Position numbers and translations under genes: made by a program
Origin: Eubacteriales bacterium
Lineage (GTDB): Bacteria; Bacillota; Clostridia; Oscillospirales; CAG-272
Direction of reading: 5' to 3'
Assembly: GCA_045635885.1 (NCBI GenBank)
Contig: JAZTWO010000076.1
Coordinates: 15,054-79,053, forward strand
DNA length: 64,000 nucleotides
Notes under the pieces: model-generated
Database searches by the model: none
Told to the model about the DNA's origin: nothing
The model's input: the letters and a program-made list of their open reading frames with translations, nothing else
In this document: in pieces, positions 3 through 47,508 of the stretch
Layout: each line of letters starts with the position of its first letter
Position numbering within the stretch: position 1 is the stretch's first letter

Positions 3-869
3 ACAGGAGCTAAGAAGCAGGACTGGAGAACTTGGTTCCTTAACGGTTGGATCGATCTTGCAACTCCCATGGCATACTATAATGATGCAAGTGACGTTAA
101 TGCAAGAGTTAAAGATATGATCCTTATGGCAGGTAACAACTGCTTGTATTATACAGGTATTGCATCCTCTTACAGTGGTTTGCCCGCATGGCAGAATAAG
201 GAACATATTGAAGCTTCTTACAATGCAGGGGCTGCAGGTTACGTAATTTTCTGTTCAACACAGATTATTGGTCACCAGGACGTTCAGGATGCACTTAAGC
301 TTGGTGTAAACGGAAAGACAGCAGTTTTGCCTCACTCCGATATCAATCTTATTCTTGCCGCAAGCTTTGCGGATATTATTGACAAGGCAGGTAGACTCTA
401 TATCCCCGCAGGTGGTATGACTGAAGAACAGATGGCAGAGCTTGAAGCAATTCTTAACGAAATTGCTGCTATGTCCGATGAAGATACAGTGGCTATTTAC
501 CTTATCAAGAACCGTATTGAAAACCTTGTAAAGAATGAAATTAAGAATTATGCTAAGGGTTATTCTCGTCAGAGAATTATCGAACAGCTTAACGAAATGG
601 TTGACATTCTTGATGCAAGAATTTCTATGCAGCTTATCGCAGACGGCGAATGGGATCCTGAAGTAGAACCTCAGCGTCCCACAGTTAACGAAAACGGTAT
701 TGGTGTTCCTAACACACCCAATACACCTAACACTCCCAACAATCCTGTAAATCCTCCCGTTAACGGTGGAAATGACAATGGTACAGAAGAACCCGAACAG
801 CTTGGTTTCTTTGCTCGTCTTATTCAGGCAATCATTGCTTTCTTCCAAAGACTTTTTGGTAAGATTTAA
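3..869 (+). CDS. GHL10 (DUF187/YngK-like) glycoside-hydrolase-like exoprotein, C-terminal part; 5' end lies outside the window
   Basis: The frame is open from the window edge (nt 3). By eye it is roughly 60% identical to the last ~270 aa of the adjacent 733-aa ORF (DW.TWF..GWI..ATPMAYY, LYYTGIASSYSGLPA, LYIPAGGMTE). A Pro/Asn/Thr linker is followed by the C-terminal tail GFFARLIQAIIAFFQRLFGKI. Confidence 0.75.
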   Translation, partial: TGAKKQDWRTWFLNGWIDLATPMAYYNDASDVNARVKDMILMAGNNCLYYTGIASSYSGLPAWQNKEHIEASYNAGAAGYVIFCSTQIIGHQDVQDALKLGVNGKTAVLPHSDINLILAASFADIIDKAGRLYIPAGGMTEEQMAELEAILNEIAAMSDEDTVAIYLIKNRIENLVKNEIKNYAKGYSRQRIIEQLNEMVDILDARISMQLIADGEWDPEVEPQRPTVNENGIGVPNTPNTPNTPNNPVNPPVNGGNDNGTEEPEQLGFFARLIQAIIAFFQRLFGKI

Positions 870-877
870 GAATTTAG

Positions 878-3079
878 TTGAAGGAGGGAATTGTTATCAA
901 AAATACATATAAAGTTTTTATTGCATTATTGATTGTTTTTGCATCGTTAACTTCTGTAATTTCAGCATCGGCCGTGCAAACATTTAATAATGATTATAGT
1001 GTCAATAAAAATGCAAGTGTTAGCACTTCCTCTCTTAATTCTACATACAACAGTATGGTAAGTAAGGTCAATTCTGCTGTGAATTCTGCTCAAACAAAGA
1101 TTTCACAGCTGTATGACCTGGATAAAGAGCTTATTGACAACTATATTTCACAAGCTAAAAATGAATTAAAGGAGATGGAAAATCTTAAAAATAGAATTTC
1201 AAATCTCCTTGGTACAAATCCAAATAGCTCTGAAATCAATTCACTTACAACGAAATTTAATAATTCCAAAGTGAAAATTGAAGAGCTTTGCTCACTTATT
1301 CTCGCTTCTTTAATCGAGAGTAACGTGGTTTCAGCAAGAGCCACTTGGTATAGACCCTGTGAAAAGACCTATGCCGAGATTAAGGCAAATGTTGAAATGT
1401 TTAAAAGTGTAGGAATTAACCTTATTTTCATTGAAACTTTCTATCATGGATGCTCCGCATTCAAAAGTGATATAAGTGATATTCCTTATCATCCCGATCT
1501 TGCATCAAGTTATAAAGATACCGAAAATAATATCGTTTATAACGATTATCTTTCTGCCTTTGTTGCTTGTTGTGTAGAGAATGGTATCGAAGTGCATGCA
1601 TGGGTTGAAAACTTTTATGTTGGAATCAATGCAAACACTAAAATAGTTGCAGATCATCCCGATTGGGTAATGTATAATGATGACGGAACTTTCCTTCAAC
1701 GCAAGGAAGGTGGACCTTACATCTTTATTGACCCGGCAAATAAAGAAGTGCAAGACCTTCTTATAAATTTTTACAACGAGTTGTTTGAAAAGCATCCCGA
1801 TGTAAAGGGACTTAATCTTGACTATATTCGTTATCCTGTTTCAAATCAGTCACAGGATACAGGATTTGCAGTTGCCGCTATGAAAGAATTTTATTCAATG
1901 CTTGGCAAAGAATTTTCTGAGGCACAACTTGCAGATCAAAACAAAATGTTGAATAAATTCTTGCAATTGTTTGATAAAAACTATCTTTATGGTGGACAAA
2001 CTGAAGCAAATGCTAACTATGAGCTTTGGGTTCAATACCGCACTCAAGTTATTACTGACTTTGTTTATCGCATAAAGACAGAGGTTAAAGAGCCAAATCG
2101 AATTGTTCTTTCAACCGCAGTTTTTGCTTCGATTAGCGAATCATTAACTGCTAAGAAAGCGGATTGGCAAACTTGGTTTAAAGAGGGATGGATTGAAATT
2201 GCAACTCCGATGGCATATTATACAAGTGCATCAACGGTTGAGGCAAGAGTAAAGGAAATGCTTGCGATTGGTGGAAATAAATGCCTTTATTACACAGGTA
2301 TTGCGTCCTCTTATAGCGGCCTTCCCGCATATCAAAACAAAGAATTTATTGAGGCATCTTATAAAGCAGGTACATCTGGTTACGTAATCTTTTCTGCGGC
2401 ACAAATTATTGGGCACAAGGATGTTCAGGACGTGCTTTCAAGTGGAGTTAATAGCAAGTGGGCAGTGTTGCCGCACGCAGATATTGACGTTATTTTGAAG
2501 GCAAGCTTTGACGATATTCTTGACAAGGTGATTAGATTATATATTCCTGCAGGTGGAATGACAGAGTCGGGAAGAGAAGCACTTGAAGAAATTTTGAATG
2601 AAATTTCTCAAATGCCCGCAACTGATTCTGATGAAATTCTTGCTATTTATAATAGACTTCAAACCCTTTTAAATAGCGAGTTGAAATCATTGGCAACAGG
2701 ATATTCATTGCAGAGATTGACAGAGAGTGTTGATTATCTTGCAGATATTATAAAGACAAGATCCCTTATGCCTATTGTTGAAGAGGAAATTCTTCCTCCC
2801 GATAATGAGGAAAATCCTGATGATGAACAAAATCCTGATGATGAACAAAATCCCGATGATGAACAAAATCCCGATGATGAAACTCAAGATAATGATGGCA
2901 ACGAAGGAGGGAATAATGGAAATGAAGACGCTGATGACAACGATTCAAACGTTGGTGGTGAGCCTTCAGACGATATTACCCCCCCACCCGTTGCAACAGA
3001 GCCAATTAAACGTGGTTTCTTGGCAAGATTGATAGAAGCAATTGTGGCTTTCTTTAACAAGCTTTTCGGTTTAGCTTAA
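878..3079 (+). CDS. Secreted GHL10 (DUF187/YngK-like) glycoside-hydrolase-like protein
   Basis: N-terminal signal/anchor (KVFIALLIVFASLTSVISASA) and an Asn/Ser-rich coiled-coil-like segment. GHL10-type motifs follow: RATWYRP, HAWVENFYVG, FIDPANKEV, LNLDYIRYP. The protein ends with an acidic (NPDDEQ)n linker and the tail RGFLARLIEAIVAFFNKLFGLA. The start is uncertain: TTG 878 lies upstream of the AAGGAGGG SD (881-888), whereas in-frame ATC 896 has ideal spacing. Confidence 0.8.
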   Translation: MKEGIVIKNTYKVFIALLIVFASLTSVISASAVQTFNNDYSVNKNASVSTSSLNSTYNSMVSKVNSAVNSAQTKISQLYDLDKELIDNYISQAKNELKEMENLKNRISNLLGTNPNSSEINSLTTKFNNSKVKIEELCSLILASLIESNVVSARATWYRPCEKTYAEIKANVEMFKSVGINLIFIETFYHGCSAFKSDISDIPYHPDLASSYKDTENNIVYNDYLSAFVACCVENGIEVHAWVENFYVGINANTKIVADHPDWVMYNDDGTFLQRKEGGPYIFIDPANKEVQDLLINFYNELFEKHPDVKGLNLDYIRYPVSNQSQDTGFAVAAMKEFYSMLGKEFSEAQLADQNKMLNKFLQLFDKNYLYGGQTEANANYELWVQYRTQVITDFVYRIKTEVKEPNRIVLSTAVFASISESLTAKKADWQTWFKEGWIEIATPMAYYTSASTVEARVKEMLAIGGNKCLYYTGIASSYSGLPAYQNKEFIEASYKAGTSGYVIFSAAQIIGHKDVQDVLSSGVNSKWAVLPHADIDVILKASFDDILDKVIRLYIPAGGMTESGREALEEILNEISQMPATDSDEILAIYNRLQTLLNSELKSLATGYSLQRLTESVDYLADIIKTRSLMPIVEEEILPPDNEENPDDEQNPDDEQNPDDEQNPDDETQDNDGNEGGNNGNEDADDNDSNVGGEPSDDITPPPVATEPIKRGFLARLIEAIVAFFNKLFGLA
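2813..2881 (+). repeat. 18-bp tandem repeat (about 3.8 copies) encoding an (NPDDEQ)n linker
   Basis: AATCCTGATGATGAACAA occurs twice, AATCCCGATGATGAACAA once, and one partial copy follows, all head to tail and in frame. Confidence 0.9.
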
Positions 3080-3153
3080 TTAAATCGACAAAAAAGATTT
3101 TCTGATGCTTTGCATCTTAAAATAATTTATTAAATACTCAGGAGGTATTTCTT

Positions 3154-6100
3154 ATGAAAATGTCAAGATTTTTGACAGTAATGGCAGTAATCCTTGTTCT
3201 TGTACTTGGTTTGTCTGCTTGTGAGTTCCCCTTGGTAAGTTCCACAACTTCTAACACAGTTGCAACTGAACCTACTAAGACAGAACCCACACACACTACT
3301 CCCACAACAACACCTACTACAAATGGTGGTAATCCCGGTGTTGATCCCACACCCGACCACGAATGCGAAAGCGTATGTCCCGAGTGTGGTTTGTGTCTTA
3401 ACGATAGTTGCGTAGATGCAGTATGCGCTGATAAGTGTGCTGGTCATCAGACAACTCCCGTTGAAACAACACCCGTTATCTCTGTAGTTCCTAGTGAAAT
3501 CGAGATTAACGCAGGTGACGATATCGATCTTATGTTCGGTGTTACTGTTGAAGACGAAGGCGACGAAGCTCCTCGTCTTATCATCTCTGATGATGATGAT
3601 TTTGATGCTGATGTTGAAGGTGTTTACACAATCACTTACACAGCAATCAACAAGTTTGGCAATGAAGCAACTGCAACACGTACAGTTACAGTTCTTAAGG
3701 CTCTTTCCGCTCTCACTCTTGAAGTTCAGAAGAACATTCTTGGTGAATCTAAGTGGACAGGCAACATGCTTAACTTCAAGAACAGCGAATACGTTGTTCT
3801 TAACGCAAGTGCAACTCTCGACAAACAGAGCGGTGTATTCTACAATGCATCTGGCTTTGAGATCACATTGACAATTTCAGGCGAATACGGCGTAGCAGCT
3901 ATCATTACTGCTAACGGCGTAGTAATTGAAGGCCGTGACGGTGCTAACAACAAGCTCGTTAACGCTTCTAACCCCGTTCGTACCTCCAGCTCCACTTCTA
4001 CTCTTGAAATCGATGGCGAAACAGTTTCTATCTCTAGCTCTTTCGCAAAGGGTATGAAGATTCCTGCAGGCGGTTATGCAATCGTTGTTCAGGCAGGTTA
4101 CTTGGGCACAACAGTTGACTCTGACGGTCGTGGCTTTATGTGCTACAACGTAATTGGCACAGTTGGTAACGTAGTTCGTTTGCTTTGGGCTGATACAAAT
4201 GAAGTTCTTACACCTTACGTTGACCAGGCTCCCGTTATCAACGGTTACAATACAACAGTTTACGCAGGTAGCAGCGAATTCGTATTTGATACAGAAGTTC
4301 TTGCAGGCGTAACAGCTACAGATGACAATGGCACATTTGATGTTTCCGACGACGTAACAGTTACAGTAACAATCAAAGACAATGGTGGCTTTGACATCAA
4401 CAAGCAGGGCAAATATACAGTAACTCTTGAAGCTACTGACGGTGAAAACACAACTGTAGTAACACGTACAGTTGAAGTTACAACTGAATCTGTTGAAATT
4501 AAGATCAACAATAATTCTTACGTAACACTTGAAGACCTTGTTGCAATCGACCAGGATCTTACAGTTCTTGGTAAGTACATCTTCGTTATCTACACACCTA
4601 ACTATAATGGTGGTCTTAACTGGACAAATGGCTACGGTGTAGCAGCAGTTATCAATAAGTACGGTGAAATCGTTCGTATTTACGACGGTGCAAGTGCTAA
4701 GTACTTTGACGAAAACAACAAGTCCGGTGTTCAGGACGGTACATGTACATCAGCTGGTTACTTGAAGGAAGCATTCGAATCTCGCCAAGATGGTGAATAC
4801 GTTCTTGTTGCTCCTAACGGTAACGGTAACGTTGGTAGAGGTTTCTTGTACTCCAACCGTACAATCGGTGCTAAGGTAACACTTCCTGGCATCACATTCG
4901 CAGCTCATGAATGTGAAAGCAAGTGCGCTAAGTGCGGTGGCTGTCTTGATGAAGCTTGTGCAGAAGCAGCATGCGCTACAAAGTGTAACTGCCACGAATG
5001 TGTAACAGTATGCGCTACATGTGGCAAGTGTGCTAACGCAGAATGTGCAGACGAAGTTTGCGCAGATAAGTGCGAAGGTCACGAAGTTCCCGCTCACGAA
5101 TGCGAAAGCGTTTGTGAACACTGTGCTAAATGTACAGACGCAGCTTGCACAGAAGAAGTTTGTGCTTCTAAGTGTGCAGGTCACGATAAGTCCATGTTCG
5201 TAACTATCGGTACAGCAAAGAAGTACGAAGCTCTTGAAGGCATGTGGGCTATCAACCAGGAAATCACAACATCCAATGCTGCAACAAAGGCAGTTTGGGT
5301 ATTTGATAAGAGCTACACAGGTAGCTTCAACACAAACGGTTACGGTGTAGCGGTAGTTCTTGACAGCTTTGGTAGAATTATTGAAGTTTATGACGGTGCA
5401 AACGTTGGTTACTGGTTGCCTTCTGGTAAGCAGGCAACTGCTCACTTCAATGCAAATACATACGCAACAACTGCATGGGCAGAACTTCAGGCAGGTGAAA
5501 CTCTTGTAGTATTCCCCAATGGTGTAGACGGCAACAAGGCTCGTCAGATCGGTCTTGATTCTCGTTACCTCTTCAATCAGAAGATGAACATCACAGGCGT
5601 TGAATTTGACGCTCCCGAAAAGACAATCACAGTAAATGGTAAGACATTTACAGCAGGTGAAGGCAAGTGGCTCTACAATACAACTGTTACTACTGCTCAG
5701 GCTCAGAACTACGCAATGATTATCTTTGATAAGAACTTCACAGGTGAATTCACAACTAATGCTTACGGTGCAGCTATCGTTCTTAACCAGTATGGTATGC
5801 TCGTAAAGGTTTATGACGGTGCTAACCTTGGCTTCTATCAGGGCAATGGTAATGAAACAGCTCACTTCACAACATCTAACTATGCTACAGTAGCTTTCTC
5901 CGACCTTAAGGATGGCGAAATTCTTATCATCCTTCCCAATGACGGAACAAATGGTGCAACATCTGCTCGTACATTTGGTCTTGGTCTTCGTACAGATGGT
6001 TCTATCGGTAAGGTAGCAACTCTTACAGGCTTCAGATTTGAATCTCCTGAAAAGACAATCACAATCGGTGCAAAGACATATACTGCTGAATACGGCAAGT

Positions 6101-6477
6101 GGCTCTACAACACAGCGGTTACTACATCTAATGCAGCTAACTATGCAATTATCCTTTTCGATAAGAACTTCACAGGCGAATTCACAACTAACGGTTATGG
6201 TGTAGCAGTAGTTCTTAACGCAGAAGGCAAGGTAACAAAGGTTTATGACGGTGCTAACGGTGGCGGTAACTGGTATACATCTGCTGGTAAAGCTGCAAAA
6301 GAAGGCATGGATGTAAACAACTATGCACAGTATGCATGGAATGAACTTCAGGAAGGCGAATTGCTTATCATTCTTCCTAATGGTGGTTCTGAAGGCAATG
6401 CGGCTCGTCAGGTTGGTCTTGATTGCCGTTGGCTCATTGGACAGAAGATGTCTGTAACAGGCTTTTCTTTCCAGTAA
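3154..6477 (+). CDS. Large surface lipoprotein of unknown function (7-Cys modules, Ig-like domains, five uncharacterised repeat modules)
   Basis: AGGAGG SD upstream of the ATG. Lipobox LGLSA|C (Cys23) followed by a Thr/Pro linker. Four 7-Cys modules, two Ig-like domains of DUF5011 flavour (G.Y..TY.A....GNEA...R.V.V), and five related 140-160-aa modules with core NGYGVA.V....G.....YDGAN...PNG. No catalytic family recognised. Confidence 0.85.
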   Translation: MKMSRFLTVMAVILVLVLGLSACEFPLVSSTTSNTVATEPTKTEPTHTTPTTTPTTNGGNPGVDPTPDHECESVCPECGLCLNDSCVDAVCADKCAGHQTTPVETTPVISVVPSEIEINAGDDIDLMFGVTVEDEGDEAPRLIISDDDDFDADVEGVYTITYTAINKFGNEATATRTVTVLKALSALTLEVQKNILGESKWTGNMLNFKNSEYVVLNASATLDKQSGVFYNASGFEITLTISGEYGVAAIITANGVVIEGRDGANNKLVNASNPVRTSSSTSTLEIDGETVSISSSFAKGMKIPAGGYAIVVQAGYLGTTVDSDGRGFMCYNVIGTVGNVVRLLWADTNEVLTPYVDQAPVINGYNTTVYAGSSEFVFDTEVLAGVTATDDNGTFDVSDDVTVTVTIKDNGGFDINKQGKYTVTLEATDGENTTVVTRTVEVTTESVEIKINNNSYVTLEDLVAIDQDLTVLGKYIFVIYTPNYNGGLNWTNGYGVAAVINKYGEIVRIYDGASAKYFDENNKSGVQDGTCTSAGYLKEAFESRQDGEYVLVAPNGNGNVGRGFLYSNRTIGAKVTLPGITFAAHECESKCAKCGGCLDEACAEAACATKCNCHECVTVCATCGKCANAECADEVCADKCEGHEVPAHECESVCEHCAKCTDAACTEEVCASKCAGHDKSMFVTIGTAKKYEALEGMWAINQEITTSNAATKAVWVFDKSYTGSFNTNGYGVAVVLDSFGRIIEVYDGANVGYWLPSGKQATAHFNANTYATTAWAELQAGETLVVFPNGVDGNKARQIGLDSRYLFNQKMNITGVEFDAPEKTITVNGKTFTAGEGKWLYNTTVTTAQAQNYAMIIFDKNFTGEFTTNAYGAAIVLNQYGMLVKVYDGANLGFYQGNGNETAHFTTSNYATVAFSDLKDGEILIILPNDGTNGATSARTFGLGLRTDGSIGKVATLTGFRFESPEKTITIGAKTYTAEYGKWLYNTAVTTSNAANYAIILFDKNFTGEFTTNGYGVAVVLNAEGKVTKVYDGANGGGNWYTSAGKAAKEGMDVNNYAQYAWNELQEGELLIILPNGGSEGNAARQVGLDCRWLIGQKMSVTGFSFQ
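4906..5184 (+). repeat. Three tandem ~30-codon 7-Cys modules (fourth copy at 3358-3447)
   Basis: The pattern HEC...C..C..C....C....C..KC.(G/C)H is repeated in translation. Confidence 0.85.
5608..6474 (+). repeat. Two adjacent ~144-codon modules (5608-6039 and 6040-6474), the closest pair among five related modules
   Basis: Both begin (D/E).PEKTIT..(G)K T(F/Y)TA..GKWLYNT.VTT and share FDKNFTGEFTTN.YG.A.VLN. They end TGF(R/S)F. Confidence 0.85.
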
Positions 6478-6526
6478 TTATTAATTCTTTAAGAATTAAC
6501 AATCAACAAAAATAAAACAAATATAT

Positions 6527-6550
6527 CCCCATCGCCTTCGGGCGATGGGG
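6527..6550 (+). other. GC-rich stem-loop with UUCG tetraloop, no U-tract
   Basis: CCCCATCGCC-TTCG-GGCGATGGGG, a 10-bp perfect stem, sits between the lipoprotein gene and the phosphodiester glycosidase gene. Confidence 0.7.
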
Positions 6551-6570
6551 GCAACAGAGAAGAGAAAAAA

Positions 6571-8229
6571 ATGAAAAAATTATTTACTTCTTTAACAGTT
6601 GTAGTAGCATTAGTTCTTTTAATGACTATTACAGTTTCCGCTTTTACATCAAGTGTTCTTTCAAATCCTTCTTATTCCATTAACATCAATGGAATGAAGT
6701 ATGTTGAAGCAACTGTAAAAGAGAACGGTTCAACACAAAAAATATTCTATGGTGAATATAACGCAACAAGCAAAGACGCTGAATATGAATGGGTAATTCA
6801 CAGTGTTAGAGATGGTTCTGAAACCACTCTTTCTACTGTATTGAAAATTGCTCAGGACTATGAAGCAAAAACAGGTCGCAAAGTTATGCTTGCGACAAAT
6901 GGCGACTATTTCTATAATACAGGCGCAAACGTTGACTCCTATGTAAATAATGGTATCGTTATTACAAAGGGTAATATGACAAACAAAAATTGCATTGGCT
7001 TTGATAACAATGGAAAAGTTGTGGTTGGCAGAATGACAGAGGTTGATGAACGTCTTGTTATTTATAACGAAAACAATGAATCACAATTTTTTAAGATTGA
7101 TAAATTTAATCAGCAGCCTGCGGCAGGTGAGATAGCTATTTATAATGTTGCAGGCACTTATACTGTAACAAATGCAGGTGCTATGGTTGTTAAGGCCGAA
7201 AGCACAAATCTTACTTCATATCCTCTTTGGGGTTCTGACTATACAATGACCGCAAAAGGCGTGCAAGAAAGTAAGACATTCACTCTTAAGAGTGGACAGT
7301 ATGCGGTAGTATATACTGCAGCTCACAATGATATTTTCAGCAATCACGTTTACGGTGATAAAGTGGACCTTGTTGAAATTCCTGCGGGTCAGTTTGCAGG
7401 ATGCACATGGGTAGTTGGCGGTTATGACGCTTTGGTTAATAACAATATTGTTAACACAAACTGCCATACTGACAACAGTGGTAATGCTGCAGCTCCTCGT
7501 ACATTTATCGGTTTTAAGGCAGATGGTACAGGATTCCTTTGTGTAGTTGACGGACGTGGTGCAGGCGGTTCTGCAGGTATCACAGTTAATCAGGAAGCAC
7601 AGCTTGCAAGTGTTCTTGGCGCACAGTTCGCTCTTGAGCTTGACGGTGGTGGTTCTTCCACTATGATTATTCGTGTAAACGATAAGCTTACACTTCGTAA
7701 TAGTCCTTCCGACGGTTCTATGAGAAAGGTATCCAATGCTATCCTTTTGGTTGAAAAACCAAAGGCAGAGGGATCACATGAGCATACTTTCGTTGAAGGT
7801 AAGTGCGAGTGTGGTGCAACTGATCCCAATTATAACCCCGGTTCAACTGAACCTCACAATCACTATTGGAATGCTGCAACATGTACAAGTCCTCGCACAT
7901 GTGAATGTGGCGAAACACTTGGTTCTGCTCTTGGACACAAATACGTTAACGGTATTTGCACAAGATGTCAGGAAGAAGACCCCAATTACATTCCTCCTCA
8001 CGAACACGTTTTCGTTGAAGGTAAATGTGAATGCGGAGCGGTGGACGAAAATTATCAACCTCCTCACGAGCACAACTTCGTTGAAGGTAAGTGCGAATGT
8101 GGGGAAGAGGATCCCAATTATACTGAAGAGTCCATGCAATCGGATTGTGGCGGTACTGTTGGCTTCGGTGGAATGATAAAGAGAATTATCGAAGCAATTA
8201 TTAAGTTTTTTATGGAATTATTTTCCTAA
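6571..8229 (+). CDS. Secreted phosphodiester glycosidase family protein (NAGPA/DUF2233-like) with Cys/His mini-modules
   Basis: Signal peptide (TITVSA|F). NAGPA-type motifs ATNGDYF, PRTFIGFKADGTGFLCVVDGRG and ALELDGGGSSTMI. Five His/Cys mini-modules at 7777-8121. C-terminal tail MIKRIIEAIIKFFMELFS. Confidence 0.85.
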   Translation: MKKLFTSLTVVVALVLLMTITVSAFTSSVLSNPSYSININGMKYVEATVKENGSTQKIFYGEYNATSKDAEYEWVIHSVRDGSETTLSTVLKIAQDYEAKTGRKVMLATNGDYFYNTGANVDSYVNNGIVITKGNMTNKNCIGFDNNGKVVVGRMTEVDERLVIYNENNESQFFKIDKFNQQPAAGEIAIYNVAGTYTVTNAGAMVVKAESTNLTSYPLWGSDYTMTAKGVQESKTFTLKSGQYAVVYTAAHNDIFSNHVYGDKVDLVEIPAGQFAGCTWVVGGYDALVNNNIVNTNCHTDNSGNAAAPRTFIGFKADGTGFLCVVDGRGAGGSAGITVNQEAQLASVLGAQFALELDGGGSSTMIIRVNDKLTLRNSPSDGSMRKVSNAILLVEKPKAEGSHEHTFVEGKCECGATDPNYNPGSTEPHNHYWNAATCTSPRTCECGETLGSALGHKYVNGICTRCQEEDPNYIPPHEHVFVEGKCECGAVDENYQPPHEHNFVEGKCECGEEDPNYTEESMQSDCGGTVGFGGMIKRIIEAIIKFFMELFS

Positions 8230-8264: not shown

Positions 8265-9824
8265 ATGAAAAAGATTTTATCATTCATTCTTTTGATCGCT
8301 ATGCTTTGCACAAGCGTTCTTGCAGTTACATCATGCGGTCCTGCTGACAATGGTGGTAACGGTGGCGACGATATCGATATGAATATCGACTTGTCCAAGA
8401 AGCCCACACTTAACGTTTTGATGCCTAACTCAGGTAAGTCAATCGAAGCAGTTAACAACAATGTTAACGCTCAGGTTATCGAAACACTTACTGGTTACAA
8501 AGTAAACTACACACAGCTTCCTGCTGATGCAACAACAACTCTTAACACAATCTTGATGGATAAAGAGAGATATGATGTTATGAAGCTCACAAAGGATCAG
8601 TTCAGCGACCTTGTTGACCAGGATATGCTCCTTGATATCACTGATGCTCTTAAGACATTCGCTCCTGATATGCTTGCAAACATTTCTCAGGAATCTTGGG
8701 ACGTTGTAACAGTTAACGGTAGAATTTACGGTATTCCTGAACGTGCTTCCAGCGACAATATCGAAAATCCCATCGTTCTTAACTACGACCTTATGCTTGA
8801 ATTGAACCTTGATATTCCCGAAACACTTGACGAATTCACAGAAGTTCTTAGAGTTATGACAGAACATCTTGGTAGACCCGCTTTGACATTTGATAAGTTT
8901 ACTCCCCTTGTTCCCGCTATTTCTGCTGCATTTGGTATCTATACATACTGGCAGGAATATGATGGAGAAGTTCTTTTCTACATGAATGCTCCCAGATATA
9001 AAGAATACGTTGATTACATGCACTCACTCTACGAAGCAGGTTACATTGACCCTGAAGTAGCTACAAATGATGCTGCAGTAGCAACAAACCGTTTTGTAAA
9101 TAGCTTTGATGCTTCTGCAGGCGGTGCAAAGGCAGGCGCATATGCTTGTTCTTTGTGGACAGTTCCCGCAATCACAACAGGTCTTTCCACAAAGGGTATC
9201 GACACAACTGATACACTTGATAACCACCTTGCATACGTTCGTTCTCTTAAGGAAAATGCAGGTGATGAAGAAAAGGTATACAGAAGCAGTGGTTACACAT
9301 ACATCTCAGCTATTCCTTACTACATGGCTGACAGAGCAGGTTATGCTCTTGACTGGATGAACTCCAAGATTAAGGATACAGAAACAGAAGACAACTTCCG
9401 TCAGATGGTTCTTGGTACACAGGACGTTCACTGGACATTGACATCAGATGGTTCATATATGCCCATCAACCCTGCATTCGCAGAAAAGGATGACGCTTCT
9501 TACTATATGACAGGTTCTAACGAAAACAAGTACACAGAATACTGGCTTGCACGTGTACGTAAGCAGCCCGAACTTTACAGAGCATGGTCCACAATGATGG
9601 AAGATGCAGATGCAGTAGGTGTATACAACGTTGTTGACTTTACTCCTCCTCTTGCAAAATATTCTGCTAACCGTTCAGCAATCGAAACAAATGCTCAGGA
9701 CTGGTTCTATATTATGCTTAGAGATGGTTCCGGCAAGCTTGCTGAATACCAGGCTAAGCTTAATGGTCAGTATAAGTGCGCAGACGCAACTGCAGAAATT
9801 AACAACTGGTATAAAAACAAATAA
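8265..9824 (+). CDS. Sugar ABC transporter substrate-binding lipoprotein (large LplA/YtcQ-like class)
   Basis: AAGGAG SD and lipobox LAVTS|C. It is a ~520-aa extracellular solute-binding protein sitting directly upstream of two MalFG-type permease genes. Confidence 0.85.
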   Translation: MKKILSFILLIAMLCTSVLAVTSCGPADNGGNGGDDIDMNIDLSKKPTLNVLMPNSGKSIEAVNNNVNAQVIETLTGYKVNYTQLPADATTTLNTILMDKERYDVMKLTKDQFSDLVDQDMLLDITDALKTFAPDMLANISQESWDVVTVNGRIYGIPERASSDNIENPIVLNYDLMLELNLDIPETLDEFTEVLRVMTEHLGRPALTFDKFTPLVPAISAAFGIYTYWQEYDGEVLFYMNAPRYKEYVDYMHSLYEAGYIDPEVATNDAAVATNRFVNSFDASAGGAKAGAYACSLWTVPAITTGLSTKGIDTTDTLDNHLAYVRSLKENAGDEEKVYRSSGYTYISAIPYYMADRAGYALDWMNSKIKDTETEDNFRQMVLGTQDVHWTLTSDGSYMPINPAFAEKDDASYYMTGSNENKYTEYWLARVRKQPELYRAWSTMMEDADAVGVYNVVDFTPPLAKYSANRSAIETNAQDWFYIMLRDGSGKLAEYQAKLNGQYKCADATAEINNWYKNK

Positions 9825-9846
9825 ACATTATTAAGGAGTGCACAAT

Positions 9847-10788
9847 ATGAGCACCAAAAAACAAAAAATGACTTTTGGAACAAAAGTGAAAAAGTATAAA
9901 TCTCTTATTCCTTTTGTTATTCCTGCAATGATGTTTGCTCTGGTTTTCTCATATTTACCTATGACAGGTATTTTGATCGCATTTAAGGATAATCCTAATT
10001 TTTTGCGATATGACGTTGTAACTGCATTCCAAAAATCCGAATGGACATTGGAGAACTTTAGAATATTGTTTTCCGACCCTGAAATTTTGTCTTACATCAG
10101 AAATACATTGATTATTTCTGTTATGAAGATAGTAATTTTGTTCCCATTGCCTGTAATTTTGGCAGTAATGATCACCGAGCTTAGAAGCAAAAAGTTTTCT
10201 AAGCTCGTGCAGGGAATAGTATTCTTGCCCCACTTCTTTTCATGGATTGTTATTGTTGGTATTTTCAACAGTATTTTTGGAATGTATGGACCTATTAATA
10301 ACCTTAGTGTAGCACTTGGTGGCGAAGCGGTTCACTTTATGGGTGAGCCCGGATGGTTTAGATGGCTTGTTGTAATTCTTTCCGGTTGGAAGGAAATCGG
10401 ATATAGCTCCATTGCATATATCGCAGCAATTATGTCAATTGACCCTGCGCTTTATGAGGCGGCAAAAATTGACGGTGCAAGCAAGCTCAAACAGATTTGG
10501 AATATCACAATTCCTTCAATCATGCCCACAATTATAGTAATGCTTATTATCCGTATCGGTTATTTGATGGATGCGGGATTTGAGCAGGTTTATGCTATGC
10601 TTAACTCACTTACAAGAGAAACCGGTGAAATCATTGGTACTTATGTATATAGATTGGGTTTCTCAATGGGTAAGAGTGACTATGGTTTGTCCACAGCTGT
10701 TGGTTTGTTTAATGGAGTAATTTCATTGATATTAATCCTTTCAGCAAACTACTTCAGTAAAAAGAAAACAGGAAATGGTGTGTGGTAA
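9847..10788 (+). CDS. Sugar ABC transporter permease (LplB/YteP-like)
   Basis: Multi-TM protein with an EAA-type loop (EAAKIDGASKLKQIWNITIP). ATG 9847 has GGAG 8 nt upstream, whereas the ORF-track GTG 9838 overlaps the SD. Confidence 0.85.
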   Translation: MSTKKQKMTFGTKVKKYKSLIPFVIPAMMFALVFSYLPMTGILIAFKDNPNFLRYDVVTAFQKSEWTLENFRILFSDPEILSYIRNTLIISVMKIVILFPLPVILAVMITELRSKKFSKLVQGIVFLPHFFSWIVIVGIFNSIFGMYGPINNLSVALGGEAVHFMGEPGWFRWLVVILSGWKEIGYSSIAYIAAIMSIDPALYEAAKIDGASKLKQIWNITIPSIMPTIIVMLIIRIGYLMDAGFEQVYAMLNSLTRETGEIIGTYVYRLGFSMGKSDYGLSTAVGLFNGVISLILILSANYFSKKKTGNGVW

Positions 10789-10790
10789 TT

Positions 10791-11666
10791 ATGGCTAAAA
10801 GTTTAACAATTAGAAATAATAGCAAAATTAAAGAAAATCGACTTTTCAACATTATTAATACAATAGCGTTGACAATTATCTCGATTATATGCTTTATACC
10901 ATTTCTTAACGTGTTGTCAGTAGCTTTGTCTACTGCAGGAAATGATATTAACTTTACTCCTAAGGGCTTTACTTGGTATAACTTCCAGTACGTTTTCTCT
11001 GATACTGGATTTTGGAGAGCAATGGGAGTATCCTTCCTTGTAGTTGTATGCGGAACATTATTGTCAGTAACAGTAATGTTTGCAGCGGCATATGCATTGT
11101 CAAAACCCAATTTTCCTGCTCGAAAGGGAATTATGGTATTCTTTATTATCGTAATGATCTTTTCTGGTGGTATGGTACCCAATTACCTTGTTGTTAGTAC
11201 ATTGGGTCTTACAAAAACTCCCTTGGCGTTGATTTTGCCATCAGTTGTGCAGGTATATAACCTTATTTTGATTAAGAGTTATCTCGAGGGACTACCCCTT
11301 GAACTTGAAGAATCTGCTTCTATTGACGGAGCAAATAACCTTCAGATAATGTTCAAAATATTGTTGCCTATGTCTATGCCATGTGTAGCAAGTGTAAGCT
11401 TGTTCACAGCAGTAACACTCTGGAACAACTATACCAGTGCGTTGCTTTATCTTGGTACCGAAGAAAAGTGGTACCCCTTGTCGCTCTATATTCTCAACTA
11501 TATTCAGTTGCCACCTGACACTCTTTCAGTAGCTATGAAGGATTTGCAGAAGGATAATATTGAAGCGGCTATGATCGTTGTTAGTATAATACCCATCCTT
11601 CTTGTTTACCCCTTGGTACTTAAATACTTTACAAAGGGCGTAACAGTTGGCGCAGTAAAAGGATAA
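10791..11666 (+). CDS. Sugar ABC transporter permease (LplC/MalG-like)
   Basis: Multi-TM protein with an EAA loop (ESASIDGANNLQIMFKILLP). ATG 10791 is preferred; the ORF-track GTG 10782 overlaps the upstream stop. Confidence 0.85.
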   Translation: MAKSLTIRNNSKIKENRLFNIINTIALTIISIICFIPFLNVLSVALSTAGNDINFTPKGFTWYNFQYVFSDTGFWRAMGVSFLVVVCGTLLSVTVMFAAAYALSKPNFPARKGIMVFFIIVMIFSGGMVPNYLVVSTLGLTKTPLALILPSVVQVYNLILIKSYLEGLPLELEESASIDGANNLQIMFKILLPMSMPCVASVSLFTAVTLWNNYTSALLYLGTEEKWYPLSLYILNYIQLPPDTLSVAMKDLQKDNIEAAMIVVSIIPILLVYPLVLKYFTKGVTVGAVKG

Positions 11667-11667
11667 T

Positions 11668-12534
11668 ATGACCATATGTATCGATATGGGTGCAACCGAA
11701 ATTAAGGTTGCACCCATTAAAGGAAAAGAAAATGAGATTTTTGTGGGAGATGTACAGAGATTTCCCACCAATGCATCCCTTGGTAAAAAGGGAATTACAG
11801 ATGCTCTGTATCAGGCAATATCTTCACTTAATGGAGATGATGTTGATGGTGTGGCTATCGCATCTGCAGGAGATATTGACGTTAATACTTCAATTATAAC
11901 CTATGCAACCGAGAATTTGCCCGGAATGATAGGTTTCGACTTTGCGCAATTTTGCAAAGAGAATTTTAATTTACCTGCAAAAGCCATTAATGATGCCCAT
12001 GCGGCGTTACTTGGTGAAATGGTTTTTGGTGTTGGTAAGGATTATCAAGATAAGAGAGTAGTGATGCTTACTCTTGGTTCAGGTGTTGGCGGCGGCTACT
12101 ATGCAGGTGGCGAAATTGTTGCTAACAAAGAGAACGATTTTGGCAGATTTGGACACATTTGTCTTGAAGAAAATGGTAGAGAATGCACTTGTGGAAAGCA
12201 CGGATGCATTGAAATGTACCTTTCAGGAAGAGCGATTCATAAAGATGCCAACAAAATAGGAATAGATGGTCCTGATATTTTTAGAAAGTATGCGGCAGGC
12301 GAACCTAAAAACGTTGAGTTTGTTGAAGACCTTCGCAAAAACCTTAAAATATCACTTGATTTAGTAATGCAGGTTAGCCCATTTGATGTTTGTATCATTG
12401 GTGGCGGTGTTGCCGATTGGATGGAAGAACATTTCTATTCAATTACAGAAGGACTTGGCTATCCTATTATTAGAGCATCCCTTGGTAATAGCGCAGGAAT
12501 TTATGGCGCATATGCTCACTATATCAAAAGATAA
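11668..12534 (+). CDS. ROK-family sugar kinase
   Basis: ROK motifs DMGATEIK and LGSGVGGG plus the zinc motif CTCGKHGCIE. There is no HTH domain, so this is a kinase rather than a repressor. It starts 1 nt after the permease stop. Confidence 0.75.
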   Translation: MTICIDMGATEIKVAPIKGKENEIFVGDVQRFPTNASLGKKGITDALYQAISSLNGDDVDGVAIASAGDIDVNTSIITYATENLPGMIGFDFAQFCKENFNLPAKAINDAHAALLGEMVFGVGKDYQDKRVVMLTLGSGVGGGYYAGGEIVANKENDFGRFGHICLEENGRECTCGKHGCIEMYLSGRAIHKDANKIGIDGPDIFRKYAAGEPKNVEFVEDLRKNLKISLDLVMQVSPFDVCIIGGGVADWMEEHFYSITEGLGYPIIRASLGNSAGIYGAYAHYIKR

Positions 12535-12593
12535 TCGTTGAATTTGAAAACTGATTTTTTAATAAAATATTACATAAAAAGCGTAGAAATATT

Positions 12594-14192
12594 ATGAAAA
12601 CAATTAATGCACAAGTAATTATTTGTGGTGCTTCACTTGGTGGCACTATTGCGGCTATAAGCGCAGCAAAGGAAGGCAAAAAAGTTGTTCTTCTTGAAAA
12701 AACAAAATGGATTGGCGGTCAGTTGACTTCCCAAGCAGTTCCTCCCGACGAGCATATGTGGATAGAGGAGCAGGGTTGCACTCGTTCATACCAGGAATAT
12801 AGAACTAAGGTTAGAAGCTATTATAGAAATCTTGAAGGTTATTCCGAAGAAATTAAAAATAGAGATTATTTCTGTCCCGGTGCATCTGAGGTTAGCTGGA
12901 TTGCTCATCCTCCTCGTCTTGCGCTTTCCATTCTTAACGATATGGTTGCTCCTTACGTTGAAAATGGCAATTTGACCATCTATACTGAAGTTCAGATAAA
13001 GGAATGTATTACAGAGGGTGACGAAATCAAAGGCGTTGTATATAATATCGACGGTGAAGATGTATTGCTCACAGGTGATTACTATCTTGACGGTACAGAT
13101 ATTGGTGACCTTATTTGCATTTCAGGTACTGAATATCGTGTTGGTGCGGAAAGCAGACACGAAACAGGTGAAGAGGATGCCCCCGAAGTTGGAGATTCTG
13201 AGGATATGCAGTCATTCATCTATTCCGCATGTATTGAAAATAGACGTGAGGGCGATTATACTATCGAAAAGCCCGAGCTTTATGATAAATTCAGTCAAAT
13301 GATGATGCCTTATGATAATCATAAGCTTTATTCAATGTACGGTCCTAACTCATCAACAGGTAAGGCGAAAAAATTTGGTATGTTCCTTGAGGAATTTAAC
13401 GAGGAAGGAAAAGAGCTTTTCCCCTTGTTTAAATACAGAAGAATCGTTTGCGCAGATTATTTCACCGACGGAAGTCAGCCCTATGACGTTACACTCGTGA
13501 ACTGGCCTCAAAATGATTTTTTCCACGGTAATCTTTTCGATTGCGAAGATGCAGAGTATAACGATTATCTTGCAAAGCAATATACTCTTTGTTTCGTATA
13601 TTGGCTTCAGACTGAAGCACCCAGATATGACGGTGGAAAGGGCTATCCATATTTTAGATTAGCTCCCGAATACGTTGGGACAGAGGACGGATTGTCAATG
13701 GCTCCATATATTAGAGAGTCAAGACGTATCAAAGCGAAAAAGACTATTACCGCTACTGACGTTTGTGATGCTGAAAAATGCAAATTTGAAGATAGTGTTG
13801 GTGTTGGAAGTTATCCTATTGACCTTCATATCACTACAAAAACACATACTTTCTTCTATAAACCAACACATAGATTTACAATTTCTCTTGGGGCAATGAT
13901 TCCTGAGAGAATGAAGAATATTTTGCCCGCTTGTAAGAATATTGGTTCAACCCATCTTACCAATGGTTGCTATCGCTTGCATCCTGTAGAATGGAATGTT
14001 GGAGAGGTTGCTGGACTTCTTGCTTCCTTTGCAATAGACAAGGGTGTTCTTCCGGTTAACGTATGGGAGAATAAGGAATTGTTCAATGAATTCTGTTTGT
14101 TGCTTGACAATCACGGTATTCAGAGATATTGGGATGAAAATAATCTTGAAGCAGGCTATGAGCGTGTTAAAAAGCTCAAAACATTTGCTTAA
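12594..14192 (+). CDS. FAD-dependent oxidoreductase of unknown substrate
   Basis: N-terminal dinucleotide-binding motif VIICGASLGGTIAAISAAKEGKKVVLLEK..W.GGQ. The 532-aa layout resembles FAD_oxidored-type proteins found in glycan loci. Confidence 0.7.
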   Translation: MKTINAQVIICGASLGGTIAAISAAKEGKKVVLLEKTKWIGGQLTSQAVPPDEHMWIEEQGCTRSYQEYRTKVRSYYRNLEGYSEEIKNRDYFCPGASEVSWIAHPPRLALSILNDMVAPYVENGNLTIYTEVQIKECITEGDEIKGVVYNIDGEDVLLTGDYYLDGTDIGDLICISGTEYRVGAESRHETGEEDAPEVGDSEDMQSFIYSACIENRREGDYTIEKPELYDKFSQMMMPYDNHKLYSMYGPNSSTGKAKKFGMFLEEFNEEGKELFPLFKYRRIVCADYFTDGSQPYDVTLVNWPQNDFFHGNLFDCEDAEYNDYLAKQYTLCFVYWLQTEAPRYDGGKGYPYFRLAPEYVGTEDGLSMAPYIRESRRIKAKKTITATDVCDAEKCKFEDSVGVGSYPIDLHITTKTHTFFYKPTHRFTISLGAMIPERMKNILPACKNIGSTHLTNGCYRLHPVEWNVGEVAGLLASFAIDKGVLPVNVWENKELFNEFCLLLDNHGIQRYWDENNLEAGYERVKKLKTFA

Positions 14193-14214
14193 TTTTTGAA
14201 TTTGGAGGGTGACT

Positions 14215-16438: not shown

Positions 16439-16458
16439 AAAACAAAAGGAGTATGTGA

Positions 16459-17841: not shown

Positions 17842-17873
17842 AAATTCAAATCATTCTAAGTTAGGAGTAAACT

Positions 17874-18884: not shown

Positions 18885-18886
18885 AA

Positions 18887-46429: not shown

Positions 46430-46470
46430 AAAAAAGCCACCAAATAAGCTTTTTAGCTTATATGATGGCT
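46430..46470 (-). terminator. Terminator after tRNA-Thr
   Basis: A 16-bp imperfect hairpin AGCCACCAAATAAGCT/AGCTTATATGATGGCT (14 of 16 pairs), followed by TTTTTT on the minus strand. Confidence 0.7.
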
Positions 46471-46475
46471 AATTT

Positions 46476-46551
46476 TGGAGCTAGTGAAAAGACTCGAACT
46501 TTCGACCTGCTGATTACGAATCAGCTGCACTACCGACTGTGCTACACTAGC
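46476..46551 (-). tRNA. tRNA-Thr (anticodon CGT)
   Basis: The reverse complement folds as a 76-nt cloverleaf. Acceptor GCTAGTG/CACTAGC, D arm GCAC-AGTCGGTA-GTGC, anticodon arm GCTGA-TTCGTAA-TCAGC, T loop TTCGAGT, encoded CCA. Confidence 0.9.
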
Positions 46552-46565
46552 AATTCGACCTTCAC

Positions 46566-46594
46566 ATTTTATCACTTTATTGAAAATTTGTCAA
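46566..46594 (-). promoter_or_regulatory. Sigma-A promoter of tRNA-Thr
   Basis: On the minus strand: TTGACA, a 17-nt spacer, then TAAAAT, ending ~15 nt upstream of the tRNA 5' end. Confidence 0.7.
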
Positions 46595-46632
46595 GGGGAA
46601 AGACTAAAAAAATTACAGACAAGAGGAAAAAT

Positions 46633-47508
46633 ATGAATCTTTGTGACGTTAAAACAATTAAGCATATAATGAGTGTTTTTGATTTGAAATTCAGAAAGGA
46701 ATTCGGTCAAAACTTCTTAATTAATAGAGCTGTTGTAGAGGATATTGCAGACAACTGCGCAGACAGTGTTGAAACATCAATTTTGGAAATTGGCCCAGGC
46801 ATCGGCCCACTTACAACAGAGCTTGCATTGAGATATAAACAGGTTGTTGCCCTTGAAATTGACCATGGGCTTATACCTGTTCTTAAATACACACTTGGTG
46901 AATTCACAAACGTTATTGTTTATAATGAGGACGTTATGAAAGCCGACCTTGAAGAATTGCTTAAACCGTATTTTGAAAATGGAAGTGTGTCAGTTTGTGC
47001 AAACTTGCCCTACTATATCACTACTCCCATTCTTATGAAGCTTCTTGAATGTGGTTTGCCATTTGATTACATAACCATTATGATTCAATCAGAGGTTGCC
47101 GACCGTTTGTGCGCAAAGGCGGGTTCTTCTGATTATGGTGCTATCACTGCTGTTCTTGCTTATTACGGAGTTGCCGAAAAACTCTTTACAGTAAGTGCAG
47201 GTAACTTTATGCCTGCCCCAAAGGTTAATTCAACCGTTGTTAGAATTAAACTTCATAAAAATAAGCCCTATGTTCCAGCAGATGAAAAAATACTTTTCAG
47301 AACTGTAAAGGGCGCATTTGAGCAGAGAAGAAAAACCTTACCAAATGCTTTGTCTGCAAGTTTTTCGGAACTTGATAAGGACGAGATAACTCAGGCAATT
47401 GTTGATTGTGGTCACAAACCCGATATAAGAGGCGAAAAGCTTTCTATAGAGCAGTTTGTAGCACTTTCAGACAAATTGTATGAGATTATTAAGTCAAAAA
47501 ATAATTGA
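46633..47508 (+). CDS. rsmA: 16S rRNA (adenine1518/1519-N6)-dimethyltransferase
   Basis: Motifs GQNFL, EIGPGIGPLT and NLPYYITTPI. ATG 46633 follows AGAGGAAAAA. The 57 upstream codons in the ORF track run antisense through tRNA-Thr. Confidence 0.9.
   Translation: MNLCDVKTIKHIMSVFDLKFRKEFGQNFLINRAVVEDIADNCADSVETSILEIGPGIGPLTTELALRYKQVVALEIDHGLIPVLKYTLGEFTNVIVYNEDVMKADLEELLKPYFENGSVSVCANLPYYITTPILMKLLECGLPFDYITIMIQSEVADRLCAKAGSSDYGAITAVLAYYGVAEKLFTVSAGNFMPAPKVNSTVVRIKLHKNKPYVPADEKILFRTVKGAFEQRRKTLPNALSASFSELDKDEITQAIVDCGHKPDIRGEKLSIEQFVALSDKLYEIIKSKNN

Follow-up and report, generated by a model that had tools for sequence, protein, structure and literature searches.

Three exported enzymes encoded at the left end of a 64,000-nucleotide stretch of the genome of an uncultured gut or rumen Clostridium (Eubacteriales; contig JAZTWO010000076.1, positions 15,054 to 79,053; hereafter the window) end in near-identical tails of about 20 residues, which are the subject of this analysis. 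Two of the carriers are tandem paralogues of the GHL10 family (genes 1 and 2, 50% identical over 313 residues), whilst the third is a phosphodiester glycosidase (NAGPA) whose fold is unrelated to that of the GHL10 pair; all three are putatively glycan-degrading, as assigned by Pfam family only. From sequence comparisons and structure prediction we propose, with a probability of roughly 0.7, that the tail is a C-terminal amphipathic α-helix of the type found in penicillin-binding proteins 5 and 6 (PBP5/6), forming an in-plane peripheral membrane anchor that monoderm Clostridia use as a modular cassette for retention at the cell surface. The features of the locus that matter here are as follows (µH, hydrophobic moment; AF2, AlphaFold2 model; pLDDT, predicted local distance difference test).

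3..641, plus strand: 3' portion of a large exoenzyme gene of the GHL10 family (gene 1), frame open from base 3
642..803, plus strand: linker of gene 1, Pro/Asn/acidic and of low complexity, 54 aa, net charge -9
804..866, plus strand: tail 1, GFFARLIQAIIAFFQRLFGKI; stop 867-869; 29.3 bits to the tail profile; µH 0.67
878..973, plus strand: signal peptide of the 733-aa GHL10 protein (gene 2), TTG start, ending ...SVISASA with VQ following; homologues begin at the same place
974..2779, plus strand: mature GHL10 (PF02638) catalytic region, Pfam E = 4e-16
2780..3013, plus strand: linker of gene 2, acidic NPDDEQ repeat, 78 aa, net charge -28
3014..3076, plus strand: tail 2, GFLARLIEAIVAFFNKLFGLA; stop 3077-3079; 24.0 bits; µH 0.66
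3154..6477, plus strand: 1107-aa lipoprotein with lipobox LGLSAC and an Ig-like domain, no tail (from sequence and Pfam)
6571..6642, plus strand: signal peptide of the 552-aa NAGPA protein, ending ...MTITVSA with FT following; AF2 helix at residues 2-19
6643..7755, plus strand: phosphodiester glycosidase (NAGPA, PF09992) globular region, Pfam E = 5.5e-26; AF2 pLDDT mostly >90
7756..8169, plus strand: Cys-rich repeat stalk of the NAGPA protein (HEHxFVEGKCECGxxDPNY, four copies) and a short disordered linker, 138 aa, net charge -17; residues 518-530 have pLDDT <50
8170..8226, plus strand: tail 3, GMIKRIIEAIIKFFMELFS; stop 8227-8229; 35.7 bits; µH 0.69; AF2 helix at residues 533-551

Translation of the plus strand confirms the tails and places each of them directly against a stop codon: LGFFARLIQAIIAFFQRLFGKI is encoded by 801-866, RGFLARLIEAIVAFFNKLFGLA by 3011-3076 and GFGGMIKRIIEAIIKFFMELFS by 8161-8226, the corresponding open reading frames (ORFs) ending at 869, 3079 and 8229. 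A six-frame regular-expression scan of the 64-kb window for the strict motif [LIVMF]I[EQ]AI[IV].FF..LF, allowing zero mismatches, returned these three sites only, and a degenerate DNA pattern of the tail found two sites in the window against 0.00 expected from 100 dinucleotide shuffles. The description of the carriers given in the first-pass annotation of this DNA also holds: acidic or Pro-rich linkers precede all three tails, the two full-length carriers begin with secretion signals, here of Sec and signal-peptidase-I type, and the lipoprotein encoded between them has a lipobox and no tail. As stated there, the N-terminus of the first carrier falls outside the window. Gene 1 (3-869) extends past the left window edge; the 288 residues that it encodes within the window match residues 771-1058 of P0240, a 1058-aa GHL10 orthologue with a signal peptide, at 99% identity. 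Close to the start of gene 2 (window 878-900), a strong AAGGAGG is found at 881-887, just within the ORF, and the annotated TTG start may need checking.

Hydrophobic-moment analysis, suggested in the first-pass annotation as one means of examining the tails, finds them to be strongly amphipathic with a continuous apolar face. On the Fauchère-Pliska scale the three window tails have µH values of 0.66-0.69 and mean hydrophobicities (<H>) of 0.75-0.82. The moment is greatest at 100° per residue, and no more than 0.05% of shuffled versions of these tails attain it. In a set of 183 distinct tails, mean µH is 0.68, and hydrophobic positions 2, 3, 6, 7, 10, 11, 13, 14, 17 and 18 occupy a single 180° arc (100-280°). 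Conservation in this set is 3.34 bits per hydrophobic position, a score somewhat inflated by the use of four of these positions to anchor the alignment, compared with 1.91 bits per polar position. On average the tail is cationic, with a net charge of +2.3, and the 40 residues before it, mostly E, P, D, N, T and G, are strongly anionic at -9.4. In the AF2 model of the NAGPA protein (52 homologues, mean pLDDT 85) the tail is a lone helix predicted at pLDDT about 70-80, following the disordered segment 518-530.

In both carrier families the tail is exchanged with a transmembrane anchor. Taking the best 120 homologues of each protein, 27 of those of the NAGPA protein and no fewer than 20 of those of the GHL10 protein have, at the position of the tail and behind a linker of similar kind, a uniformly hydrophobic transmembrane helix and a KKRK-type K/R cluster. 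One such pair is formed by P0077, which has the transmembrane anchor, and P0080, which has the tail. These proteins are identical at 385 of 395 residues (97.5%) up to the linker, whilst linker and anchor are wholly different, and the pair records a recent swap of one anchor cassette for the other. The tail might itself be a true membrane-spanning tail anchor, single or oligomeric, with a topology like that of the transmembrane helices of the orthologues. Its position is exactly that of these helices, a length of 18-21 residues and the <H> values given above would permit spanning, and the GKK ending of many tails resembles a stop-transfer cluster. However, each tail has 4-6 residues that are polar or charged, spaced at i, i+3/4 (R5, Q/E8, N/D12, K/R15, N/K16), and its µH of about 0.68 compares with 0.10 for real transmembrane anchors (the orthologue anchor has µH 0.10 and <H> 1.12). 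The window tails moreover end ...LFS, ...LFGLA and ...LFGKI, with no cytoplasmic basic cluster, and the PBP5 tail, which has the same layout, is surface-bound and obliquely inserted (PMC2909392). A spanning topology is on this evidence quite improbable.

The distribution of the tail extends well beyond the window. A profile of 22 positions, built from 51 tails and run with HMMER on 1.84 billion representative proteins, gave 53 matches at E <= 1e-3, of which 44 lie at most 8 residues from the C-terminus. The matches are typically preceded by an E/P/D-rich linker and have the consensus (E)LNFFQRIWxAIVNFFKxLFGKK, with many tails ending in GKK. About 90 of the best 120 NAGPA homologues have the same kind of tail, as do 72 (strict pattern) or 93 (looser pattern) of the best 120 GHL10 homologues, the difference between the two counts being mostly due to close variants such as NFFLWLINLIVEFFKNLFGIK. 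A genome scan with the DNA pattern returned at least 118 loci; about half of the matches listed arise by chance in short or non-coding frames, and most of the listed matches within ORFs likewise lie at most 8 residues from the C-terminus. Single-linkage clustering of the locus proteins fused unrelated families through their common tail, so representatives were chosen by hand. Pfam, applied to the longer profile matches and to the genome-scan loci, identifies as carriers pectate lyase with CBM77, Pel9A-like beta-helix, pullulanase X25, CBM26, CotH, cohesin (L108), metallophosphoesterase, polysaccharide deacetylase, Laminin_G_3, F5/8-C, GLUG, PQQ propeller, Ig-like, NAGPA and GHL10 proteins. The relatives have NCBI names of the kind 'Clostridia bacterium', 'Ruminococcaceae' and 'Eubacteriales' and are metagenome-assembled genomes (MAGs). 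A crude signal-peptide test was passed by 145 of 181 tail-bearing, near-full-length NAGPA and GHL10 homologues, the failures inspected being gene calls that start inside the signal peptide, and no lipobox was found in the tail-bearing NAGPA and GHL10 homologues tested.

The tail is modular, and a wider profile scan, as the first-pass annotation had recommended, places it on many unrelated exported families; the confinement to paralogous genes that was considered there as the contrary outcome is not what is seen. Two of the three window tails do sit on tandem paralogues, as would be expected of a gene-duplication leftover or a chance amphipathic ending with no role in localisation. This explanation is scarcely credible, and it is contradicted by the distribution: the third tail is on an unrelated fold, the 53 significant matches (44 of them C-terminal) fall on many families, the expectation from shuffling the window is 0, and the motif is kept across homologues only 50-60% identical while the linkers diverge freely. 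Simple paralogy was ruled out by the unrelated fold that carries tail 3 and by the many carrier families.

Some variation on the tail was also observed. P0265 has a tandemly duplicated tail, and an extra 'xLFG' turn is seen in others among P0201, P0214 and L072. P0001 and P0002 are 77-78 aa proteins without a signal peptide that end LPLIEAIIAFFKRLFGKKKQDV, nearly identical to tail 1 over 13 residues. A search with a tandem-duplicated alignment of the three tails gave 12 candidates, of which just two, both small proteins, have a similar ending.

Outside the Clostridial exoenzymes the same layout recurs on proteins of several kinds. Signal-peptide-bearing DUF1002 (PF06207) proteins of Bacillales, Lactobacillales, Streptococcus and Lachnospiraceae have the same tail, for example FFSNIWNAIVNFFKGLFGG, at their C-termini (L001, L009, L012, L017, L021, L025, L026, L030, L041, L048, L050, L057, L077, L079, L082 and L099), which suggests that this uncharacterised family is anchored in the membrane. 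About ten Gammaproteobacterial proteins (Marinobacter and others) of 389-395 aa among the genome-scan matches listed end PEGGFFKRIWDAIKLFFVQLFQ, and one Lactobacillaceae (Holzapfeliella) DacA in the same set ends MNFFEKIWHAISSFFSSLFGK. Representatives of these proteins (L029 and L055) are Peptidase_S11 + PBP5_C by Pfam, that is, PBP5/6-type DD-carboxypeptidases; the Marinobacter-type DacA scores 16-22 bits and the Lactobacillaceae DacA 17 bits against the Clostridial profile, both having been found by our own pattern. The layout of the tail is common to it and the tails of the PBP5 family. Spirochaete ParB_N proteins of ~129 aa, without a signal peptide, end GFFRRIWxAIxxFFRxLFxxx (L100 5305-5691; L059, L075, L080, L106, L052 and L023) and combine a cytoplasmic DNA-binding-type domain with a membrane-targeting-like tail, and a cytoplasmic CoxG protein of an actinomycete has the same tail layout at its end.

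These occurrences bear on whether the tail binds lipid directly or acts as a protein docking or oligomerisation helix, a mini-dockerin that would recognise a dedicated membrane or wall receptor or bundle its carriers into multimers. The very high conservation on unrelated Clostridial cargo, the recurrence of one consensus on a dozen families and the cohesin domain of L108 would all be in keeping with docking. We nevertheless regard it as unlikely. The conservation sits on the hydrophobic face whilst the polar face varies freely, the orthologues substitute a plain transmembrane helix that needs no partner, and a partner common to Gammaproteobacterial PBP5-family proteins, DUF1002 proteins of Bacillales and Lactobacillales, and cytoplasmic ParB_N and CoxG is implausible. 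Because the tail is found on cytoplasmic ParB_N and CoxG of other phyla, lipid binding fits better than a lineage-specific partner or recognition tag.

Known sorting and retention signals were also considered. A cleaved sorting signal of sortase, exosortase or rhombosortase type, leading to covalent attachment to wall or lipid, would likewise lie at the extreme C-terminus, be modular on many exported proteins and be enriched by lineage, but it is very improbable here. The tail lacks the architecture of a signature motif, transmembrane helix and basic cluster, has no LPXTG, matches no NCBIfam or Pfam sorting-domain model even at E up to 10, and is also found on cytoplasmic proteins. The isolated tails matched none of the families of NCBIfam release 20 (E up to 10) and nothing relevant in Pfam, where a single chance phiKZ match had E = 0.23; the four full-length proteins scanned matched no NCBIfam C-terminal sorting-domain model, and the tail profile run on PDB sequences gave only chance matches inside Pro-tRNA ligases (E >1). 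A sortase substrate was rejected in that the last 60 residues of the carriers contain no LPXTG, the tail is amphipathic and not uniformly hydrophobic, and no model matched; for exosortase, archaeosortase and rhombosortase domains (PEP-CTERM, GlyGly-CTERM, Firmicu-CTERM and others) there was no match to an NCBIfam/TIGRFAM-type model. The lipobox [LVI][ASTVI][GAS]C is absent from the tail-bearing proteins and present in two neighbouring tail-less ones. Wall-binding modules (SLH, LysM, CWB2, choline-binding, SH3b) and dockerin were set aside on the Pfam results for the carriers, which give only GHL10-related or NAGPA domains. The earlier statement that the tail is neither an LPXTG nor an SLH motif is in agreement with these searches. 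The window carriers do not belong to the class C low-molecular-weight PBP family, being GHL10 and NAGPA proteins with no S11 or PBP5_C match.

The surrounding locus is conserved as a whole in a near-identical contig (97% nucleotide identity) and in a related MAG (L121). An exact-sequence look-up of the NAGPA protein of the window gave no match, and this contig was located by way of P0240. On the upstream side of the locus, beyond the left edge of the window, is an RpiR-type regulator (L123 1-10000, same species), followed by the cytoplasmic enzymes, namely a GH38 alpha-mannosidase, NanE, DUF4127 and a 385-aa GHL10. Next come the exported proteins: the GHL10 pair and the NAGPA protein, each with a tail, and two lipoproteins, the 1107-aa one and a solute-binding protein. 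Downstream are two permeases of an ATP-binding cassette (ABC) importer, a ROK kinase, an FAD oxidoreductase, a NagA-like amidohydrolase, a putative kinase (of the APH/phosphotransferase family in the window) and an aldose epimerase. This downstream part occupies 8265-19729 of the window, where a second ROK-like protein and an NAD-dependent epimerase/dehydratase also precede the aldose epimerase, and in L121 the locus continues with a mannose-6-P isomerase. To judge by these gene assignments it is a conserved sugar-utilisation locus, and its substrate is likely to be a Man/GlcNAc(-phosphate) glycan. The five exported soluble proteins have one anchor each, the three signal-peptide proteins a tail and the two lipobox proteins no tail, whilst GH38, NanE, DUF4127 and the 385-aa GHL10 have neither tail nor lipobox; the remaining proteins of the window with a signal-peptide-like start are anchored in the membrane at the N-terminus. 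The 1107-aa lipoprotein is the internal contrast of the locus, exported but differently anchored. Spo0A, encoded on the near-identical contig, indicates a lineage of endospore-formers and hence an organism that is presumably monoderm.

Cys-rich mini-repeats occur in two of the exported proteins. The repeats of the NAGPA stalk are modelled by AF2 as small hairpins (pLDDT 75-88) and have no Pfam match; the 1107-aa lipoprotein has Cys-rich HECESVCxxCGxCxDxxCxxxxCxxKCxGH sequence near its N-terminus and around residues 590-680, again with no Pfam match. In both proteins these repeats separate the anchor from the catalytic or Ig-like parts, and they may be metal- or disulfide-stabilised stalk modules. 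Elsewhere in the window, a mechanically called ORF at 46462..47508 (plus strand) overlaps a tRNA-Thr at 46476-46551 (minus strand), and the 5' end of this ORF is probably non-coding.

The suggestion in the first-pass annotation of a PBP5/6-like anchor is supported by four independent computed lines. It is favoured because the tail is strongly amphiphilic as a helix and is modelled as a helix standing alone at the terminus; because orthologues in two families, including the 97.5%-identical pair, have a transmembrane anchor instead; because genuine Peptidase_S11 + PBP5_C enzymes end in the same layout; and because every exported soluble protein of the locus has exactly one anchor and the cytoplasmic enzymes have none. 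In the mechanism that we envisage, Sec would export the enzymes and signal peptidase I would remove the signal peptide, their sole N-terminal hydrophobic segment. The last 18-20 residues would fold at the outer leaflet of the cytoplasmic membrane, with the Phe/Ile/Trp/Leu face buried and the Arg/Lys/Gln/Asn face placed at the anionic head-groups. The long acidic/Pro-rich linker, repelled by the polyanions of membrane and wall, or the Cys-rich stalk would allow the catalytic domain to reach into or beyond the wall, and products would be released beside the ABC importer encoded immediately downstream. Linker and tail together behave as a portable cassette on many unrelated gut and rumen Clostridial exoproteins, exchanged in evolution with an ordinary transmembrane anchor. 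The sequence and position of the tail, its amphipathicity and modularity, its swap with transmembrane anchors and the layout that it has in common with real PBP5-family tails are established by the present data; we infer the membrane binding, the outer-leaflet topology and the wall-spanning role of the linker.

Several observations weigh against this reading. E. coli PBP5 scores 5.9 bits to the Clostridial profile, a value reached by 1/1000 shuffles, PBP6 does not rise above its shuffles, and the cross-phylum matches were picked by our own pattern; for these reasons the likeness between our tail and the PBP tails stays at the level of layout, short of homology. Positions A9-I10, F13-F14 and L17-F18 are 87-97% conserved on unrelated Clostridial cargo, four of these six having also been used for selection or alignment, and a likeness that goes beyond generic amphipathicity could reflect a specific receptor or the recent spread of one cassette. 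The high <H> of 0.75-0.82 would also permit a deeper or tilted insertion. Four of the profile matches (P0152, P0156, P0167 and P0173; 111-164 aa) have both a lipobox and the tail, separated by mostly acidic low-complexity sequence, and such double anchoring is unexpected if the tail is taken as a purely alternative anchor. In P0127, P0140 and P0142 a helix resembling the tail lies inside the protein, with an acidic extension of 70-100 residues behind it.

The anchoring principle is already known from the low-molecular-weight PBPs and is not mechanistically surprising. What appears to be new is a conserved, portable cassette on carbohydrate-active and other exoproteins of monoderm Clostridia, of which we found no description. 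Reviews and predictors give five modes of holding proteins at the surface (transmembrane helices, lipoproteins, sortase signals, wall-binding modules, and S-layer or cellulosome docking), and amphipathic C-terminal helices are not among the anchoring modes in two broad reviews of Gram-positive trafficking and surface display. Searches of the literature on amphipathic anchors in Clostridia and Gram-positives turned up only the PBP5 work and general reviews (a preprint on pneumococcal DacA describes the helix as N-terminal and was set aside for this reason), and six tail strings were not found by full-text search of the searchable literature, subscription-only papers being outside it. The first-pass annotation had not recognised the tail as a described signal, and no description emerged from Pfam, NCBIfam, PDB sequences, surface-display reviews or the full-text strings. 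Should the proposed role be correct, pectate lyases, X25 starch-binding proteins, GHL10, NAGPA, CotH and DUF1002 proteins that are now read as freely secreted would become cell-bound, models of 'selfish' versus shared glycan degradation in gut and rumen communities would change, and Clostridia would offer a compact surface-display tag of ~20 residues; there would also be a functional hint for the widespread DUF1002 family. It is conceivable, if doubtful, that in gut and rumen Clostridia the acidic linker and tail form a general uncatalogued surface-display system, a mobile cassette setting whether hundreds of carbohydrate-active enzymes are cell-bound or public goods, and that the strict consensus reflects more than lipid affinity, namely a specific lipid or lipid-linked wall precursor, regulated release, or loading of membrane vesicles.

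Among known systems, the sortase LPXTG, SLH, LysM, CWB2 and lipobox modes of display in Firmicutes have the same presumed purpose, but their motifs are absent from the three tail-bearing proteins, and the lipobox is used by neighbouring proteins of the locus and not by the tailed ones. The C-terminal single-pass transmembrane anchor with basic cluster of Gram-positive exoproteins resembles the tail in position, in the kind of linker and in being exchanged with it in near-identical proteins; it differs in being uniformly hydrophobic and followed by KKRK, whereas the window-type tail is amphipathic and in many cases forms the very end of the protein. Cytoplasmic membrane-targeting sequences such as those of MinD and FtsA, which attach reversibly to the surface of the membrane, resemble the tail in being short, cationic and amphipathic helices at a protein terminus, and the tail motif itself occurs on cytoplasmic ParB_N and CoxG. 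They act at the inner leaflet and, to judge by the MinD and FtsA tails included in our moment comparison for illustration only, are shorter and less hydrophobic than our tail. Pestivirus Erns is a secreted glycoprotein enzyme attached to a membrane through its long C-terminal in-plane amphipathic helix, which is both a retention and a secretion signal (PMC3937272). It differs in being a eukaryotic viral protein, and its helix is far longer than the tail and unrelated to it in sequence.

The closest resemblance is to the anchors of the class C low-molecular-weight PBPs of E. coli, namely PBP5 (DacA), PBP6 (DacC) and DacD. The last 18 residues of E. coli PBP5 form an amphipathic helix that attaches the enzyme to the outer face of the inner membrane, and deletion of this helix leaves the enzyme delocalised and inactive in vivo (PMC2909392), in agreement with the background on PBP5-type DD-carboxypeptidases given in the first-pass annotation. 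The marks of this class of anchor are found in the tail, which is a helix of ~18-20 residues with a high moment and one apolar face at the extreme C-terminus of Sec-exported proteins. In both cases the enzyme has a cleaved signal peptide, and the ~18-residue amphipathic helix follows a Gly. The spacing of PBP5, NFFx(K/R)I..xI...F...FG as read from the E. coli genome, is that of the Clostridial NFFQRIWxAIxNFFxxLFG, and the Marinobacter and Holzapfeliella DacA tails match the Clostridial pattern outright. The differences are of context. In PBP5 the helix comes directly after PBP5_C, whereas in the window proteins it comes after an acidic/Pro-rich or Cys-rich spacer of 50-140 residues; the host here is presumably monoderm, unlike that of PBP5; and whilst the cargo of the PBP5 helix is Peptidase_S11 + PBP5_C, the tail described here is carried by many unrelated, mostly carbohydrate-active exoproteins.

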